IMG/VR virus record: IMGVR_UViG_2667527770_000005
Coordinates: 1-64,000 of that record
DNA length: 64,000 nt
Strand: one strand, 5' to 3'
From: a virus
Lineage: Duplodnaviria; Heunggongvirae; Uroviricota; Caudoviricetes
A model generated the notes under the pieces. That model did no database searches and was not told the DNA's origin. It was given only the letters and a program-made list of their open reading frames with translations. The translations under genes were made by a program, and so were the position numbers. Positions 34,744 to 40,776 of the stretch are shown here, in pieces (the first letter of the stretch is position 1; every line of letters starts with the position of its first letter).

Positions 34744-36306
34744 ATGAAAATGACAAGTATTCAACAACGTGCAGAGCTTCATCGTCAAATCTGGCAAATT
34801 GCTAACGATGTCAGAGGTTCGGTCGATGGATGGGATTTTAAGCAATACGTTCTGGGCGCGCTTTTCTACCGTTTTATCAGCGAAAATTTTTCCAGCTATA
34901 TTGAAGCCGGTGATGACAGCATCTGTTATGCGAAACTGGATGACAGCGTAATTACTGATGACATTAAAGACGATGCCATCAAAACCAAAGGCTACTTCAT
35001 CTACCCAAGTCAGCTTTTCTGCAACGTAGCTGCGAAAGCAAATACCAATGACAGACTGAATGCAGATTTAAACAGCATCTTCGTTGCTATCGAAAGTTCT
35101 GCTTACGGTTATCCTTCAGAAGCTGACATCAAAGGTTTGTTTGCTGATTTCGATACCACCAGTAACCGCCTGGGTAACACCGTTAAAGATAAAAATGCCC
35201 GCCTGGCTGCGGTTCTGAAAGGGGTTGAAGGGTTAAAACTTGGTGACTTCAACGAACATCAGATTGACCTGTTCGGTGATGCCTATGAGTTCCTGATTTC
35301 TAACTATGCGGCAAATGCCGGTAAGTCAGGCGGTGAGTTCTTTACACCGCAGCACGTCTCCAAGCTGATTGCACAACTGGCTATGCACGGGCAGACCAAC
35401 GTTAACAAAATCTACGACCCGGCAGCGGGTTCCGGCTCACTGTTGTTGCAGGCTAAAAAGCAGTTTGATAACCATATCATTGAAGAAGGCTTTTTCGGAC
35501 AGGAAATCAACCATACGACCTATAACCTGGCACGTATGAACATGTTTTTGCACAACATCAACTACGACAAGTTTGATATCAAGCTGGGCAATACGCTGAC
35601 TGAGCCGCACTTCAGAGATGAAAAACCGTTTGATGCCATCGTATCTAACCCACCGTATTCGGTGAAATGGATTGGCAGCGATGACCCGACGCTGATTAAC
35701 GATGAGCGTTTTGCCCCGGCTGGCGTTCTGGCCCCCAAATCCAAAGCTGACTTTGCGTTTGTATTACATGCGCTGAACTATCTTTCGGCCAAAGGTCGCG
35801 CTGCGATTGTCTGCTTCCCGGGCATTTTTTACCGTGGCGGCGCAGAGCAGAAAATCCGTCAGTATCTGGTCGATAATAACTATGTCGAAACCGTGATTTC
35901 ACTGGCTCCGAACCTGTTCTTTGGCACCACCATTGCCGTCAATATTCTGGTGTTGTCTAAACATAAAACCGATACCAAAGTTCAGTTTATTGACGCCAGC
36001 GAATTATTCAAAAAAGAGACTAACAACAATATCCTGACCGATGCCCATATCGAACAGATTATGCAGGTATTTGCCAGCAAGGAAGATGTTGCTCATCTGG
36101 CGAAATCAGTCGCGTTTGAGACTGTTGTCGCGAATGACTATAACCTGTCGGTGAGCAGTTATGTGGAAGCGAAAGATAACCGCGAAATTATCGATATTGC
36201 TGAGTTGAATGCAGAGCTGAAAACCACGGTCAGCAAAATCGACCAGTTGCGTAAAGATATTGATGCGATTGTAGCTGAAATTGAAGGCTGCGAGGTACAG
36301 AAATGA
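34744..36306 (+). CDS. hsdM: type I R-M methyltransferase subunit HsdM (type IC, EcoR124 family)
   Basis: 520-aa ORF; AdoMet-binding region and catalytic VSNPPYS (NPPY) motif. Confidence 0.95.
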
Positions 36307-37538
36307 GCGAGTTGAGTTATCTGGAAAAATTGCTGGATGGGGTTGAAGTTGAGTGGTTGCCATTGGGGGAAATAACCAAATATGAACAGCCAACAAAGTA
36401 TTTGGTAAAAGCAAAAGATTATCACGACACATATACAATACCGGTTCTTACTGCCGGAAAAACATTTATTCTTGGATACACAAATGAGACTCATGGTATT
36501 TATCAGGCATCAAAGGCACCTGTAATAATTTTTGATGATTTCACCACCGCTAATAAATGGGTGGATTTTGACTTTAAGGCAAAATCATCGGCCATGAAAA
36601 TGGTTACATCATGTGATGATAATAAAACCTTACTGAAATATGTTTACTATTGGCTCAATACATTACCAAGTAAATTCGCAGAGGGAGACCATAAACGCCA
36701 ATGGATTAGTAATTATTCTCAAAAAAAAATCCCAATTCCCTGCCCGGATAATCCGGAAAAATCCCTTGCCATCCAGTCCGAAATTGTTCGGATTCTGGAT
36801 AAGTTTACTGCACTTACCGCTGAGCTTACCGCTGAGCTTACCGCTGAGCTTAACATGCGTAAAAAACAGTACAACTACTATCGCGACCAGTTGTTGAGTT
36901 TTGATGAGGAGCAGGAAAAACCTATTTATCTGGAAAAATTGCTGGATGGGGTTGAGGTTGAGTGGTTGCCATTGGGGGAAGTCTCAGCCTTAAGAAGAGG
37001 CAGAGTTATGTCAAAGGGATATTTAACTGAAAATTTTGGCCCATATCCTGTCTATAGCTCTCAAACTGCAAATAATGGGAAAATAGGTTCTATCAATACC
37101 TTCGATTTTGATGGCGAATATATAAGCTGGACAACAGATGGCGCAAATGCAGGCACTGTGTTCTATCGAACAGGTAAATTTTCAATAACTAATGTTTGCG
37201 GCCTGATTACATTAAAAAATAAATACCCATTAATCTACAAATTTCTGTTTTACTGGCTAACAATAGAAGCCAAAAAACATGTTTACTCAGGAATGGGAAA
37301 CCCCAAGTTAATGAGTCATCAGGTTGAAAATATACCTGTACCAGTCCCCTGCCCGGATAATCCGGAAAAATCCCTTGCCATCCAGTCTGAAATCGTTCGG
37401 ATTCTGGATAAATTCGACACCCTGACCAACTCCATCACCGAAGGTCTCCCGCGTGAAATCGAGTTGCGCCAGAAACAATACGAGTACTACCGTGATTTAC
37501 TGTTCAGTTTCCCGAAACCTGAAGCTGTCAGTAATTAA
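36303..37538 (+). CDS. hsdS: type I R-M specificity subunit HsdS (type IC)
   Basis: 411-aa ORF with duplicated conserved segments ([17 protein letters not shown] twice; [23 protein letters not shown] twice) and central TAEL x3 repeat. Confidence 0.92.
36813..36848 (+). repeat. 3 x 12-bp tandem repeat CTTACCGCTGAG (TAEL x3) in hsdS central conserved region
   Basis: read directly; the same repeat type differs in copy number between EcoR124I and EcoR124II. Confidence 0.9.
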
Positions 37539-37659
37539 TTGACCATTGCTACCGACCGGGCCACCTTAACACCCGGTCAGTATATAGACTATTTTTTACA
37601 CGCTGGAAGTCACCATTAACGCCCTTCCGGCCCTTGCCAGACGGCACAAAGGATGCGCT

Positions 37660-40600
37660 ATGACTCATCAAACACACACCATTGCTGAATCCAATAACTT
37701 TATCGTTCTTGATAAATACATCAAAGCTGAGCAAACAGGCGACAGCTATCAGAGCGAATCGGACCTGGAACGTGAACTGATTCAGGACCTGCAAAATCAG
37801 GGCTATGAATTTATATCCGTAAAATCACAGTCAGCGATGCTGGCCAACGTTCGGGAACAGCTTCAGAGCCTCAATGGTGTGATGTTTAATGACAGCGAGT
37901 GGCGGCGTTTCACGGAGCAGTATCTGGACAACCCGAGCGATGGCATTCTGGATAAGACCCGTAAAATCCATATCGACTATATTTGCGACTTTATTTTTGA
38001 TGACGAGCGACTTGAGAACATCTATTTGATAGATAAAAAGAATCTCATGCGCAATAAGGTGCAGATTATCCAGCAGTTTGAACAGACGGGTTCTCATGCT
38101 AACCGTTATGACGTCACGATCCTGGTTAATGGCTTACCACTGGTACAAATCGAACTGAAAAAGCGCGGCGTGGCGATTCGTGAGGCTTTCAACCAGATAC
38201 ATCGTTACAGTAAAGAGAGTTTTAACAGCGAAAACTCCCTGTTTAAGTATCTGCAACTGTTTGTCATTTCTAACGGCACCGATACCCGTTATTTTGCCAA
38301 CACAACAAAGCGCGATAAAAACAGTTTTGACTTCACCATGAACTGGGCGAAATCAGACAACACGCTGATTAAAGACCTCAAAGATTTTACCGCTACCTTT
38401 TTCCAGAAACATACTCTGCTTAATGTTCTGGTGAACTACAGCGTTTTTGACAGCAGTCAGACGCTACTGGTGATGCGACCGTACCAGATTGCCGCCACCG
38501 AACGAATCTTATGGAAAATCAACAGCTCCTATAAAGCGAAAAACTGGTCTAACCCCGAAAGCGGTGGCTTTATCTGGCACACTACCGGTTCTGGTAAAAC
38601 ACTGACCAGCTTTAAAGCCGCGCGTCTGGCAACAGAACTGGACTTTATTGATAAAGTCTTCTTCGTGGTCGACAGGAAAGACCTCGATTACCAGACCATG
38701 AAGGAATACCAGCGTTTTTCGCCAGACAGCGTCAACGGCTCGGAAAATACCGCAGGTCTTAAACGAAATCTGGATAAGGACGATAACAAAATTATCGTCA
38801 CCACTATTCAGAAACTTAATAACCTGATGAAAGCAGAAAGCGACCTGCCTGTATACAATCAGCAAGTGGTGTTTATATTTGATGAATGCCACCGCAGCCA
38901 GTTTGGAGAAGCGCAGAAAAACCTGAAGAAGAAATTCAAACGCTATTATCAGTTTGGTTTTACCGGCACACCTATTTTCCCGGAAAACGCTTTAGGCTCA
39001 GAAACGACCGCCAGCGTATTTGGCCGTGAATTGCATTCGTATGTGATTACCGATGCGATTCGAGATGAAAAAGTGCTTAAATTCAAGGTGGACTACAACG
39101 ATGTGCGGCCACAGTTTAAGTCTTTAGAGACAGAAACCGACGAGAAAAAACTGAGTGCGGCTGAAAATCAGCAGGCGTTTCTTCATCCCATGCGTATACA
39201 GGAAATTACGCAATATATTCTGAATAACTTCCGCCAGAAGACCCACCGTACTTTCCCAGGTTCCAAAGGCTTTAATGCCATGCTGGCAGTGAGTAGCGTG
39301 GATGCCGCGAAAGCCTATTACGCGACGTTTAAACGGTTACAAGAGGAAGCAGCTAATAAATCGGCTACCTATAAACCGCTGCGTGTTGCGACAATCTTCT
39401 CCTTTGCCGCCAATGAAGAACAAAATGCCATTGGTGAAATTTCCGATGAAACTTTTGATACCAGCGCAATGGACAGCAGTGCTAAAGAGTTTCTTGACGC
39501 TGCAATTCGTGAGTATAACAGCTATTTTAAAACTAACTTCAGCACCGACGGTAACGGTTTTCAGAACTACTATCGCGATTTAGCCCAACGGGTTAAAAAT
39601 CAGGATATCGATCTGTTAATTGTCGTGGGGATGTTTTTAACTGGCTTCGATGCTCCAACATTGAACACGCTATTCGTCGATAAAAACCTGCGTTTTCACG
39701 GCTTGATGCAGGCATTTTCCCGCACCAACCGTATTTATGATGCAACTAAAACCTTCGGTAATATCGTCACTTTCCGGGATCTGGAACGCTCAACTATTGA
39801 TGCCATAACGCTGTTTGGTGACAAAAACACCAAAAATGTGGTTTTAGAAAAGAGTTATGCAGAGTATATGGAAGGCTTTACTGATGCTGCCACTGGTGAA
39901 GCTAAGCGCGGCTTTATGGCAGTAGTTTCAGAACTGGAACAACGGTTCCCTGACCCTGCCAGTATTGAAAGTGAAAAAGAGAAGAAAGACTTCGTTAAAC
40001 TGTTTGGTGAATACCTGCGTGCCGAGAACATCCTGCAAAACTATGATGAATTTGCCACGCTGAAAGCCCTGCAACAAATCGATCTTAGCGATCCTGTTGC
40101 GGTAGAAAAATTCAAAGCAGAACATTATGTGGATGATGAAAAATTCGCTGAATTGCAAACAATTCGTCTCCCTGCTGATCGCAAGATTCAGGATTATCGT
40201 TCTGCCTATAACGATATTCGCGACTGGCAGCGCCGTGAGAAAGAAGCTGAGAAAAAAGAGAAATCAACCACTGACTGGGATGACGTAGTTTTTGAGGTCG
40301 ATTTGCTGAAGTCTCAGGAAATAAACCTGGATTATATCCTTGGACTGATTTTCGAACACAACAGACAAAATAAAGGCAAGGGCGAAATGATCGAAGAGGT
40401 CAAACGCTTAATTCGTTCAAGCCTAGGGAACCGTGCTAAAGAGGGCCTGGTGGTCGATTTTATTCAGCAAACGAACCTGGATGATTTACCGGACAAAGCC
40501 AGCATCATTGACGCATTCTTTACGTTTGCTCAACGCGAACAGCAACGTGAAGCAGAAGCATTGATAAAAGAAGAAAATCTCAATGAAGATGCAGCAAAAC

Positions 40601-40776
40601 GCTATATTCGCACGTCTTTAAAACGCGAATATGCCACCGAAAATGGCACAGAATTAAACGAAACATTACCAAAACTTAGTCCGTTAAATCCGCAATATAA
40701 AACGAAAAAACAGGCAGTTTTCCAGAAAATCGTCTCGTTTATTGAGAAGTTTAAAGGCGTAGGCGGAAAAATATAG
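37660..40776 (+). CDS. hsdR: type I restriction endonuclease subunit HsdR
   Basis: 1038-aa ORF; PD-(D/E)xK region [13 protein letters not shown], helicase motif I TGSGKT and motif II DECH. Confidence 0.95.

Follow-up and report, generated by a model that had tools for sequence, protein, structure and literature searches.

Judged by its sequence, the 64,000-nucleotide stretch of viral DNA analysed here (the window) carries a real and intact restriction-modification (R-M) system of the EcoR124 family, type IC, encoded by hsdM, hsdS and hsdR. We put at roughly 90% the probability that this functional-looking system is cargo of the accessory kind, carried by a P1-like phage-plasmid at one of its variable loci.

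The list of open reading frames (ORFs) contains exactly the three that an earlier note had claimed, in M-S-R order and at the lengths it gave; all are on the plus strand and free of frameshifts and internal stops. They are hsdM (34744-36306, 520 amino acids), encoding the N6-adenine methyltransferase subunit; hsdS (36303-37538, 411 amino acids), encoding the specificity subunit and built of two tandem half-modules; and hsdR (37660-40776, 1038 amino acids), encoding the translocase/endonuclease subunit. A 4-nt overlap (ATGA) joins hsdM to hsdS, and a 121-nt gap separates hsdS from hsdR. The RefSeq annotation starts hsdM two codons downstream, at the second ATG, to give 518 amino acids, which is a trivial start-codon ambiguity.

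Type I families are delimited by complementation, antibody cross-reaction and sequence, the last of which was applied here. HsdM and HsdR score far above the cut-offs of the NCBIfam models TIGR00497 (648 bits) and TIGR00348 (759 bits), respectively. In Pfam, HsdM matches N6_Mtase (PF02384) and HsdM_N (PF12161); HsdR matches HSDR_N (PF04313), SWI2_SNF2 (PF18766), T1R_D3 (PF22679) and, over residues 728-1031, the EcoR124-type C-terminal helical domain EcoR124_C (PF12008, 241 bits); and HsdS contains two Methylase_S (PF01420) stretches. A PDB sequence search returned end-to-end matches to EcoR124 subunits: HsdM differs from the EcoR124II M protein (7bst_D) at two positions, 518 of 520 residues being identical, and HsdR is about 98% identical to 2w00_A over its full length of 1038 residues (of the 968 residues displayed, 18 are mismatched). 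By comparison, the M protein of type IA EcoKI matches HsdM with just 65 bits. HsdM displays the AdoMet motif DPAAGSG at 225 and NPPY at 302; HsdR displays the PD-(D/E)xK residues D151, E165 and K167, Q179xxxY183, the Walker A motif TGSGKT at 309 and the DEAD box DECH at 408. The type IC assignment of the earlier note is thus borne out by family models, subunit identity, catalytic motifs and the TAEL repeats of hsdS described below.

By the model established for EcoR124, a methyltransferase made of two HsdM and one HsdS would N6-methylate one adenine per strand of a bipartite target, and joining of HsdR would give an R2M2S complex. Where the target is unmethylated, the complex would pull in DNA by an ATP-driven motor and cut it at a distance. 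The DNA of a lysogen, the plasmid-prophage included, would then be methylated, and phages and plasmids that enter unmodified would be restricted. Reviews describe the establishment of type IC systems in naive hosts and their restriction alleviation as independent of ClpXP, a property that suits a transmissible element.

HsdS has conserved N-terminal, central and C-terminal regions, the first and last of which are near-identical to those of EcoR124 HsdS. Its residues 1-200 follow EcoR124 HsdS (7bst_A) almost perfectly, and residues 357-411 correspond to the C-terminus of that chain. The first target recognition domain, TRD1 (36372-36731, plus strand), is the EcoR124 N-terminal domain, with two substitutions in that half of the protein; its GAA half-site is known from EcoR124I-NT and the type IC recognition table. 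Three tandem 12-nt TAEL units (36817-36852, plus strand) encode 12 residues of the central conserved helix, one unit more than the solved 7bst_A chain has in the alignment. Reviews assign the control of spacer length to the third repeat, which EcoR124II and EcoDXXI also have. The second domain, TRD-B (36981-37340, plus strand), is unrelated to the EcoR124 C-terminal domain, and the PDB sequence search found no match between this stretch and EcoR124 HsdS. At 99% identity or more, TRD-B recurs in 16 plasmids and 93 of 5426 E. coli genomes, and single-TRD HsdS proteins of about 200 amino acids from other genera are about 70% identical to it. Its usual place is N-terminal: of the 12 plasmids checked, 10 have it offset by 69 nt from the start of hsdS.

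Among the closest known systems is the type IC prototype, EcoR124II of R124/3 (2W00/7BST), which shares the gene order, a near-identical GAA domain, the C-terminal conserved region and the number of TAEL repeats, three. It differs in that its second domain reads RTCG, whereas the unrelated TRD-B here lies between copies of the N-terminal and pre-central conserved segments, and in that it resides on a conjugative plasmid and not on a P1-like phage-plasmid. The predicted target is GAA, the EcoR124II spacing and then the TRD-B half-site; three TAEL repeats would separate the methylated positions by 8 bp, as in EcoR124II and EcoDXXI. Since TRD-B normally occupies the N-position, its half-site probably lies on the opposite strand. 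If TRD-B, like the other N-position type IC domains, recognises three nucleotides of which the last is A, the target would take the form GAA(N8)TNN. The linker from 'LLSF' to 'GE' in the second half of HsdS is N-terminus-like and has 24 residues, compared to 10 in EcoR124, so the exact spacer is an extrapolation. The combination of a GAA domain, TRD-B at position 2 and three TAEL repeats is rare, recurring in one other PLSDB record, and we found no determination of its target in the literature; an assay would add one new specificity to REBASE.

Two families of direct repeats frame the recognition domains. The 55-nt repeat D2, encoding 18 residues of the N-terminal conserved region, lies at 36317-36371 (plus strand) and again, 98% identical, at 36926-36980; the 74-nt repeat D1, encoding 23 residues, lies at 36732-36805 (plus strand) and, 93% identical, at 37341-37414. 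Both pairs are spaced by exactly 609 nt (203 codons), and this tandem half-gene build is the sole mildly interesting detail of the system. It invites the reading that hsdS is a recombinational switch, in which RecA-dependent, in-frame crossing-over between the D1 or D2 copies would leave a half-size gene with only TRD-B or only TRD1, whose product would dimerise and recognise a palindrome. Further variants would come from changes in TAEL copy number, and one lineage could cycle among several specificities. Simulated deletions yield 208-residue proteins identical at 203 and 204 of 208 positions to natural half-size HsdS proteins, which are carried by the P1-like IncY plasmids CP122779.1 and NZ_CP074035.1. 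Furthermore, TRD-B is also the second domain in NZ_CP062902.1, where the TAEL repeats number two and not three. Half-size type IC HsdS proteins, namely EcoR124I-delta50/NT, EcoDXXI-delta and NgoAV, are reviewed as active homodimers; the tandem build and its natural half-size relatives agree with the known rule that type IC half-subunits act as dimers and that a TRD can function at either position. A comparable case is the relocation of recognition domains, inside one gene or from gene to gene, described in Helicobacter pylori. Unlike the homodimeric proteins, however, hsdS here is full length with two different domains, and the window contains no truncation of it. Within one molecule a deletion cannot be reversed, neither an invertase nor an inverted-repeat shufflon lies near hsdS, and rare historical recombination among population alleles explains the same facts. 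The N-terminus-like central junction is, moreover, common among type IC alleles, with at least 97 plasmids matching at least 80% of the probe, a count that includes some two-piece matches via the repeated D2 sequence; the half-gene principle itself dates from the 1990s. We consider a switch unlikely.

The window has a P1 backbone: positions 2-8307, 10163-21953, 23356-26824, 32100-34394 and 40852-43200 are collinear with P1, at 94-98% identity. BLAST comparisons with P1, phage vB_EcoM-673R5 and pYLPI7b delimit the hsd module as a mobile unit (34645-40851, plus strand), a block common to other P1-like elements with P1 homology on either side. This homology stops at 34394 and restarts at 40852; in vB_EcoM-673R5 and pYLPI7b the module has its left end where 34645 would be and directly adjoins the phd side (33656 in the window). 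GC content is 0.40-0.47 in the module versus 0.47-0.52 in its flanks. Between the start of hot and the module lies a 250-bp linker (34395-34644) to which BLAST found no match in P1, vB_EcoM-673R5 or pYLPI7b; it is present in 45 PLSDB plasmids that have the hot-hsdM junction. The module is flanked by minus-strand P1 genes, with pdcB, pdcA, doc, phd, humD and hot on the left and pap and pmgS on the right. In place of the module, P1 has 2.1 kb with upfO, upfN, upfM, pmgV, pmgU and pmgT; lxr is also absent from the window. The earlier note, which had proposed the comparison of hot-proximal loci, correctly placed hsd beside hot in a P1-like backbone; the insertion it described is better called a replacement than a clean insertion, with upfO-pmgT gone and lxr missing too. 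The comparison reveals a replacement locus whose junctions are common to other P1-like plasmids.

The right junction is the site given for EcoDXXI and R124/3 in the P1 reference annotation. The 84 bp of P1-derived sequence that follow the module are likewise noted downstream of the R124/3 hsdR. EcoDXXI of pDXX1 has, by the same annotation, its right junction at P1 84482 and phd-doc on its left, and it shares the three TAEL repeats. It differs in its specificity domains, being set apart by its published target, TCA(N7)RTTC, and in gene content, since the element analysed here keeps humD and hot between phd and hsdM; the phd-hsdM arrangement is seen in pYLPI7b, CP122779.1 and vB_EcoM-673R5. Other P1-like phage-plasmids, for example NZ_AP027686.1, NZ_CP062902.1 and phage phi456, have the same locus and junctions; NZ_AP027686.1 (pPSS-10_1) matches hsdS exactly and is 99.8% identical across 8.1 kb. 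Most other P1-like hsd loci differ in having other TRD combinations, two TAEL repeats, a half-size hsdS or IS insertions. Tyndall et al. (1997) had described P1 DNA flanking type IC hsd loci, and the 2004 P1 reference annotation already notes the link. In PLSDB, the hsdR-pap junction occurs in 256 plasmids and the hot-hsdM junction in 45. A type IC hsd system on a P1-like phage-plasmid, known since 1997 and common in sequenced Enterobacteriaceae plasmids, is therefore ordinary, and as a discovery the pairing matters little.

The Dar set is complete (six of six genes), with hdf, darA, ddrA and ddrB in window 2-8307 (P1 24024-32325) and ulx and darB in window 10163-21953 (P1 9750-21539); Pfam matches include DarA_N/DarA_C and ddrB-ParB, and the darB ORF has 2255 amino acids. 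Compared with P1, the EcoP1I res/mod locus is absent from the window and a SIR2-family gene sits at its site. In the literature consulted, Dar protection is named for EcoB and EcoK (type IA), EcoA and StySA (type IB) and also BREX; we found no statement there on type IC. The presence of DarA and DarB on the same element as hsd, as noted earlier, holds. The claim of a different defence cargo stands relative to reference P1, which has type III EcoP1I at a different locus, but it is old knowledge and describes something very common. An element armed for attack and evasion is a fair description, R-M and Dar both being present, but one equally true of classical P1, a prophage-plasmid with EcoP1I and packaged anti-restriction proteins. 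The phi456 DNA, with hsd at this locus, was sequenced from purified plaque-forming particles; of the element itself, 64 kb is visible here. Among public records, the best match is a composite plasmid of 159.7 kb that contains IS elements.

The hsd module could instead be mainly selfish, serving stabilisation by post-segregational killing or the exclusion of competing P1-like elements and not host antiphage defence. It adjoins the phd-doc addiction module, and its alleles vary between otherwise similar P1-like plasmids. R-M genes, furthermore, rank among those that pass most frequently from phage-plasmids to plasmids or back, and the literature discusses them as poison-antidote elements. Against strong post-segregational killing speaks the easy entry and exit of type IC systems, in which restriction is alleviated by assembly control. 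A selfish role is compatible with a defensive one and sequence does not discriminate between them; to the mainly selfish reading we assign a low probability, and defence cargo in a variable locus remains the preferred account.

Several transcription signals surround hsdR. The gap between hsdS and hsdR contains a promoter-like site (37566-37595, plus strand; TTAACA, 18 nt, TATTTT), a weak consensus match only, which is consistent with a separate hsdR promoter. EcoR124 hsdR is reportedly driven by a promoter of its own, as Kulik and Bickle are said to have found in 1996. At the 3′ end of the module, the alignment displays a hairpin, CTTGCGGGTT...AACCCGCAAG (40793-40820, plus strand), with no T-run after it. 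In the P1-derived right flank, a strong intrinsic-terminator-like hairpin with a T-run (40970-40994, plus strand; 10-bp stem, six GC pairs, TTTTTATTTT tail) is retained in the aligned P1, pYLPI7b and vB_EcoM-673R5 sequences and appears placed to halt hsdR transcripts ahead of pap. Further right, P1 annotation and alignment locate a C1 repressor operator (P1 Op88/OpmgT; 41028-41044, minus strand; reverse complement ATTGCTCTAATAAATCT) with the PpmgT promoters, which point toward the 3′ end of hsdR. Antisense transcription from the conserved, C1-repressed PpmgT promoter could tie restriction to the lysogeny-lysis decision, and hsdS could be an active switch among a heterodimer-type and two palindromic specificities, a joint scheme that we regard as quite improbable. 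Support for it goes no further than anatomy.

Least probable is that restriction is silent, leaving only a methyltransferase or a defective plasmid remnant with hsd as a passenger: IS elements interrupt hsdS or hsdR in CP100027.1, NZ_CP122822.1 and NZ_CP089136.1, the hsdM and hsdR calls of vB_EcoM-673R5 are fragmented and the best-matching record is composite, but here three full-length ORFs hold every catalytic motif, HsdR is identical to a sequence on 67 contigs and P1 synteny is otherwise intact. For annotation, the value of the window lies in a P1-like element with type IC R-M and a SIR2-family gene instead of EcoP1I. The hot/phd-pap and mat-lxc intervals behave as slots for defence cargo in P1-like phage-plasmids.

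The hsdM (34744-36306, 520 aa), hsdS (36303-37538, 411 aa) and hsdR (37660-40776, 1038 aa) genes are uninterrupted open reading frames on the + strand, with a 4-nt overlap between hsdM and hsdS and a 121-nt gap before hsdR; the three are thus intact, in M-S-R order and located where the earlier note had them. HsdM scores 648 bits against TIGR00497 (curated cut-off 243) and HsdR 759 bits against TIGR00348 (cut-off 285), and the PADLOC models matching the genes are those of a type I MTase, specificity subunit and REase. The Pfam domains are N6_Mtase and HsdM_N in HsdM, Methylase_S in two stretches of HsdS, and HSDR_N, SWI2_SNF2, T1R_D3 and EcoR124_C in HsdR. 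In a search of all PDB chains, HsdM aligned over its full length with the M protein of EcoR124II (2 mismatches in 520 residues) and HsdR with EcoR124 HsdR (2W00/7BST; 18 mismatches in the 968 residues displayed). The full set of EcoR124 catalytic residues is kept: D151, E165, K167, Q179xxxY183, the Walker A motif TGSGKT at 309 and DECH at 408 in HsdR, and DPAAGSG at 225 and NPPY at 302 in HsdM. Near-identical PDB subunits, profile scores above the cut-offs and these residues bear out the proposed family, and the genes, judged by sequence, make up a type IC system belonging to the EcoR124 lineage, an assignment more specific than plain 'type I'. By near-identity to the EcoR124 model, M2S would methylate the target and R2M2S would translocate and cleave unmodified DNA. 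In a new host, establishment would depend on assembly control and not on ClpXP, as reviews describe for type IC systems.

Alignment to phage P1 and its annotation shows that the window is collinear with P1 in reverse orientation. The hsd genes have pdcB, pdcA, doc, phd, humD and hot, all encoded on the - strand, on their left and pap and pmgS on their right; P1 homology ends at 34394, the start of hot, and restarts at 40852. Between hot and pap, P1 carries upfO, upfN, upfM, pmgV, pmgU and pmgT (2094 bp), and the window carries 6457 bp. The system therefore does lie beside hot, as had been noted, but it was not simply inserted there, because 2094 bp of P1 genes have been replaced. A transposon-like insertion is disfavored, as we found no transposase, and direct or inverted repeats flanking the block did not exceed chance.

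The junctions look instead like products of recombination within the P1 backbone. The segment 34645-40851 is a block common to other hsd-bearing P1-like elements; in pYLPI7b, CP122779.1 and vB_EcoM-673R5 it is fused straight to the phd side, with humD and hot lost as well. The 250 bp that precede it in the window (34395-34644) are restricted to the hot-hsdM arrangement; neither reference P1 nor the phd-joined elements contain a match. This segment contains just one mechanically called open reading frame (77 aa, - strand). The LexA-regulated lxr gene (717 bp), which P1 has between humD and hot, is missing, and 63 bp (34093-34155) remain there between two P1-homologous blocks. The right junction corresponds to P1 coordinate 84482, from which the P1 record notes 96% identity to E. 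coli DNA downstream of the EcoDXXI hsd locus and 98% identity to R124/3 DNA downstream of hsdR; for the phd-doc stretch it notes 98% identity to DNA upstream of the EcoDXXI hsd locus. In many plasmids the match to the junction probe stops 84 bp into the P1 segment (CP088557.1, NZ_MK295827.1 and NZ_CP124416.1 were sampled), the same length as the R124/3 remnant.

The comparison of the hot-proximal locus that the earlier note had called for shows that these junctions are shared: 45 PLSDB plasmids cover at least 80% of a 651-bp hot-hsdM probe and 256 cover at least 80% of an 801-bp hsdR-pap probe. NZ_AP027686.1 matches over 8.1 kb at 99.8% identity and has an identical hsdS. A 1997 work by Tyndall, judging by its title in reference lists, reportedly concerns type IC hsd loci flanked by P1 DNA. 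The module also occurs in the deposited phage records vB_EcoM-673R5 and phi456; the phi456 sequence came from purified particles that form plaques on MC1061, so virion production is compatible with the absence of pmgT-V, hot and humD. A recent survey of phage-plasmids reports that restriction-modification systems are some of the genes they most frequently exchange with plasmids. The hsd system of the window is thus a well-known kind of cargo at a well-known place. The details of its hsdS allele, namely a rare combination of target recognition domains, a tandem half-gene build and an unassigned half-site, merit a line of annotation and not a claim of discovery.

Residues 1-200 of HsdS differ from EcoR124 HsdS by two substitutions, and the last 55 residues likewise match it. 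This N-terminal part includes the EcoR124 recognition domain, whose half-site is GAA according to reviews. The central helix contains three TAEL repeats (36817-36852, + strand), one unit more than the EcoR124 chain 7bst_A in the alignment; reviews state that the third repeat stretches the distance between the two methylated positions from 7 bp to 8 bp, and give EcoR124II, GAA(N7)RTCG, and EcoDXXI, TCA(N7)RTTC, as three-repeat examples. The second recognition domain, which we call TRD-B (36981-37340, + strand), has no counterpart in EcoR124 and no match to any PDB chain in the same sequence search. Two segments of hsdS are duplicated: the conserved N-terminal segment (36317-36371 and 36926-36980; 55 nt, 98% identity) and the segment preceding the central helix (36732-36805 and 37341-37414; 74 nt, 93% identity). 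Both pairs are offset by exactly 609 nt, or 203 codons, which means that hsdS consists of two tandem half-genes.

TRD-B is present at 99% identity or above in 16 plasmids of PLSDB and, for the most part on the chromosome, in 93 of the 5426 complete E. coli genomes. It begins 69 nt into hsdS, i.e. in the N-terminal position, in 10 of the 12 plasmids in which it could be placed, and takes the second position, as in the window, only in NZ_AP027686.1 and NZ_CP062902.1, the latter differing in having two TAEL repeats. The exact HsdS sequence is absent from a collection of 15 billion proteins, even though NZ_AP027686.1 has the identical gene. Beyond E. coli, the closest relatives of TRD-B are single-domain HsdS proteins of about 200 aa (about 70% identity). 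The homologue search for a half-site assignment returned generic protein names only, and a search of the literature with GAA(N7+) and (N7)TTC motifs yielded nothing applicable to type IC alleles of E. coli. The predicted target would combine GAA, EcoR124II-type spacing and the reverse complement of the site that TRD-B reads in the first position. As the N-position type IC domains GAA, TCA and CCA all read trinucleotides with a final A, the target would by analogy become GAA(N8)TNN if the TRD-B trinucleotide also ends in A.

Removing 609 nt in silico between the copies of either repeat leaves an in-frame protein of 208 aa. The product with TRD-B only is identical at 203 of 208 positions to the natural half-size HsdS of CP122779.1 (3957-4583), and that with the GAA domain only at 204 of 208 to the half-size HsdS of NZ_CP074035.1, pYLPI7b (4001-4627). 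Both relatives are 208 aa long with a single recognition domain, are encoded by P1-like plasmids with hsd at the same locus as the window, and are predicted to have palindromic targets. The PLSDB gene table of CP122779.1 lacks hsdR. The plasmid population shows domain shuffling, TAEL slippage and half-gene forms alike; these agree with principles established during the 1990s on type IC enzymes, according to a review, and are nothing new in kind. The idea that the second-position, N-terminus-like central junction is unusual was rejected, as at least 97 plasmids match at least 80% of its probe.

EcoR124 hsdR has a promoter of its own, and a promoter-like site at 37566-37595 in the hsdS-hsdR gap fits this arrangement. 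The P1-derived flank contains a strong hairpin resembling a terminator (40970-40994), which has its T-run on the hsdR-sense strand and is positioned to end hsdR transcripts ahead of pap. In P1, no gene is annotated on the strand that this terminator faces, which would be consistent with an ancestral gene having occupied the locus in the same direction as hsd. Op88, the C1 operator, and the PpmgT promoters (about 41028-41044) are conserved and directed into the 3′ end of hsdR, which would allow antisense transcription into hsdR after induction. Between PpmgT and pmgT in P1 lies a hydrophobic open reading frame of 28 aa (MNTAFKIIMAAIYFWLFSITFGSIVAHG; 40856-40942, - strand), which is conserved but unannotated in P1, has its stop codon 4 nt away from the junction of hsd and P1 DNA, and is kept in all aligned hsd-bearing relatives.

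The anti-restriction set is complete in the window: hdf, darA, ddrA and ddrB (2-8307) match P1 24024-32325, and ulx and darB lie within 10163-21953 (darB 14467-21234, 2255 aa). Restriction and evasion are thus combined on one element, as claimed, but classical P1 does likewise with its type III system EcoP1I. Systems against which Dar is described as protective are EcoB and EcoK (IA), EcoA and StySA (IB) and BREX, and the literature naming these systems yielded no statement on type IC. The defence cargo does differ from that of classical P1: type IC hsd is present and EcoP1I absent, with window 21954-23355 standing in for P1 3469-9749 (res, mod and IS5). This replacement, between lxc and mat, encodes a SIR2_2-domain protein of 434 aa (21995-23299, - strand), for which the best PADLOC matches are the candidate PDC-S25 and ThsA-like models. 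At least 65 P1-sized PLSDB plasmids carry the gene, and none of the INPHARED phage records does; it stands single, with no obvious partner. Another non-P1 segment (8308-10162), between ssb and the darA operon in place of P1 isaA/IS1/isaB, contains a Gram-negative porin gene (8817-9929, + strand, 370 aa; PF00267, 494 bits), possibly a lysogenic-conversion gene that changes the cell surface or receptor.
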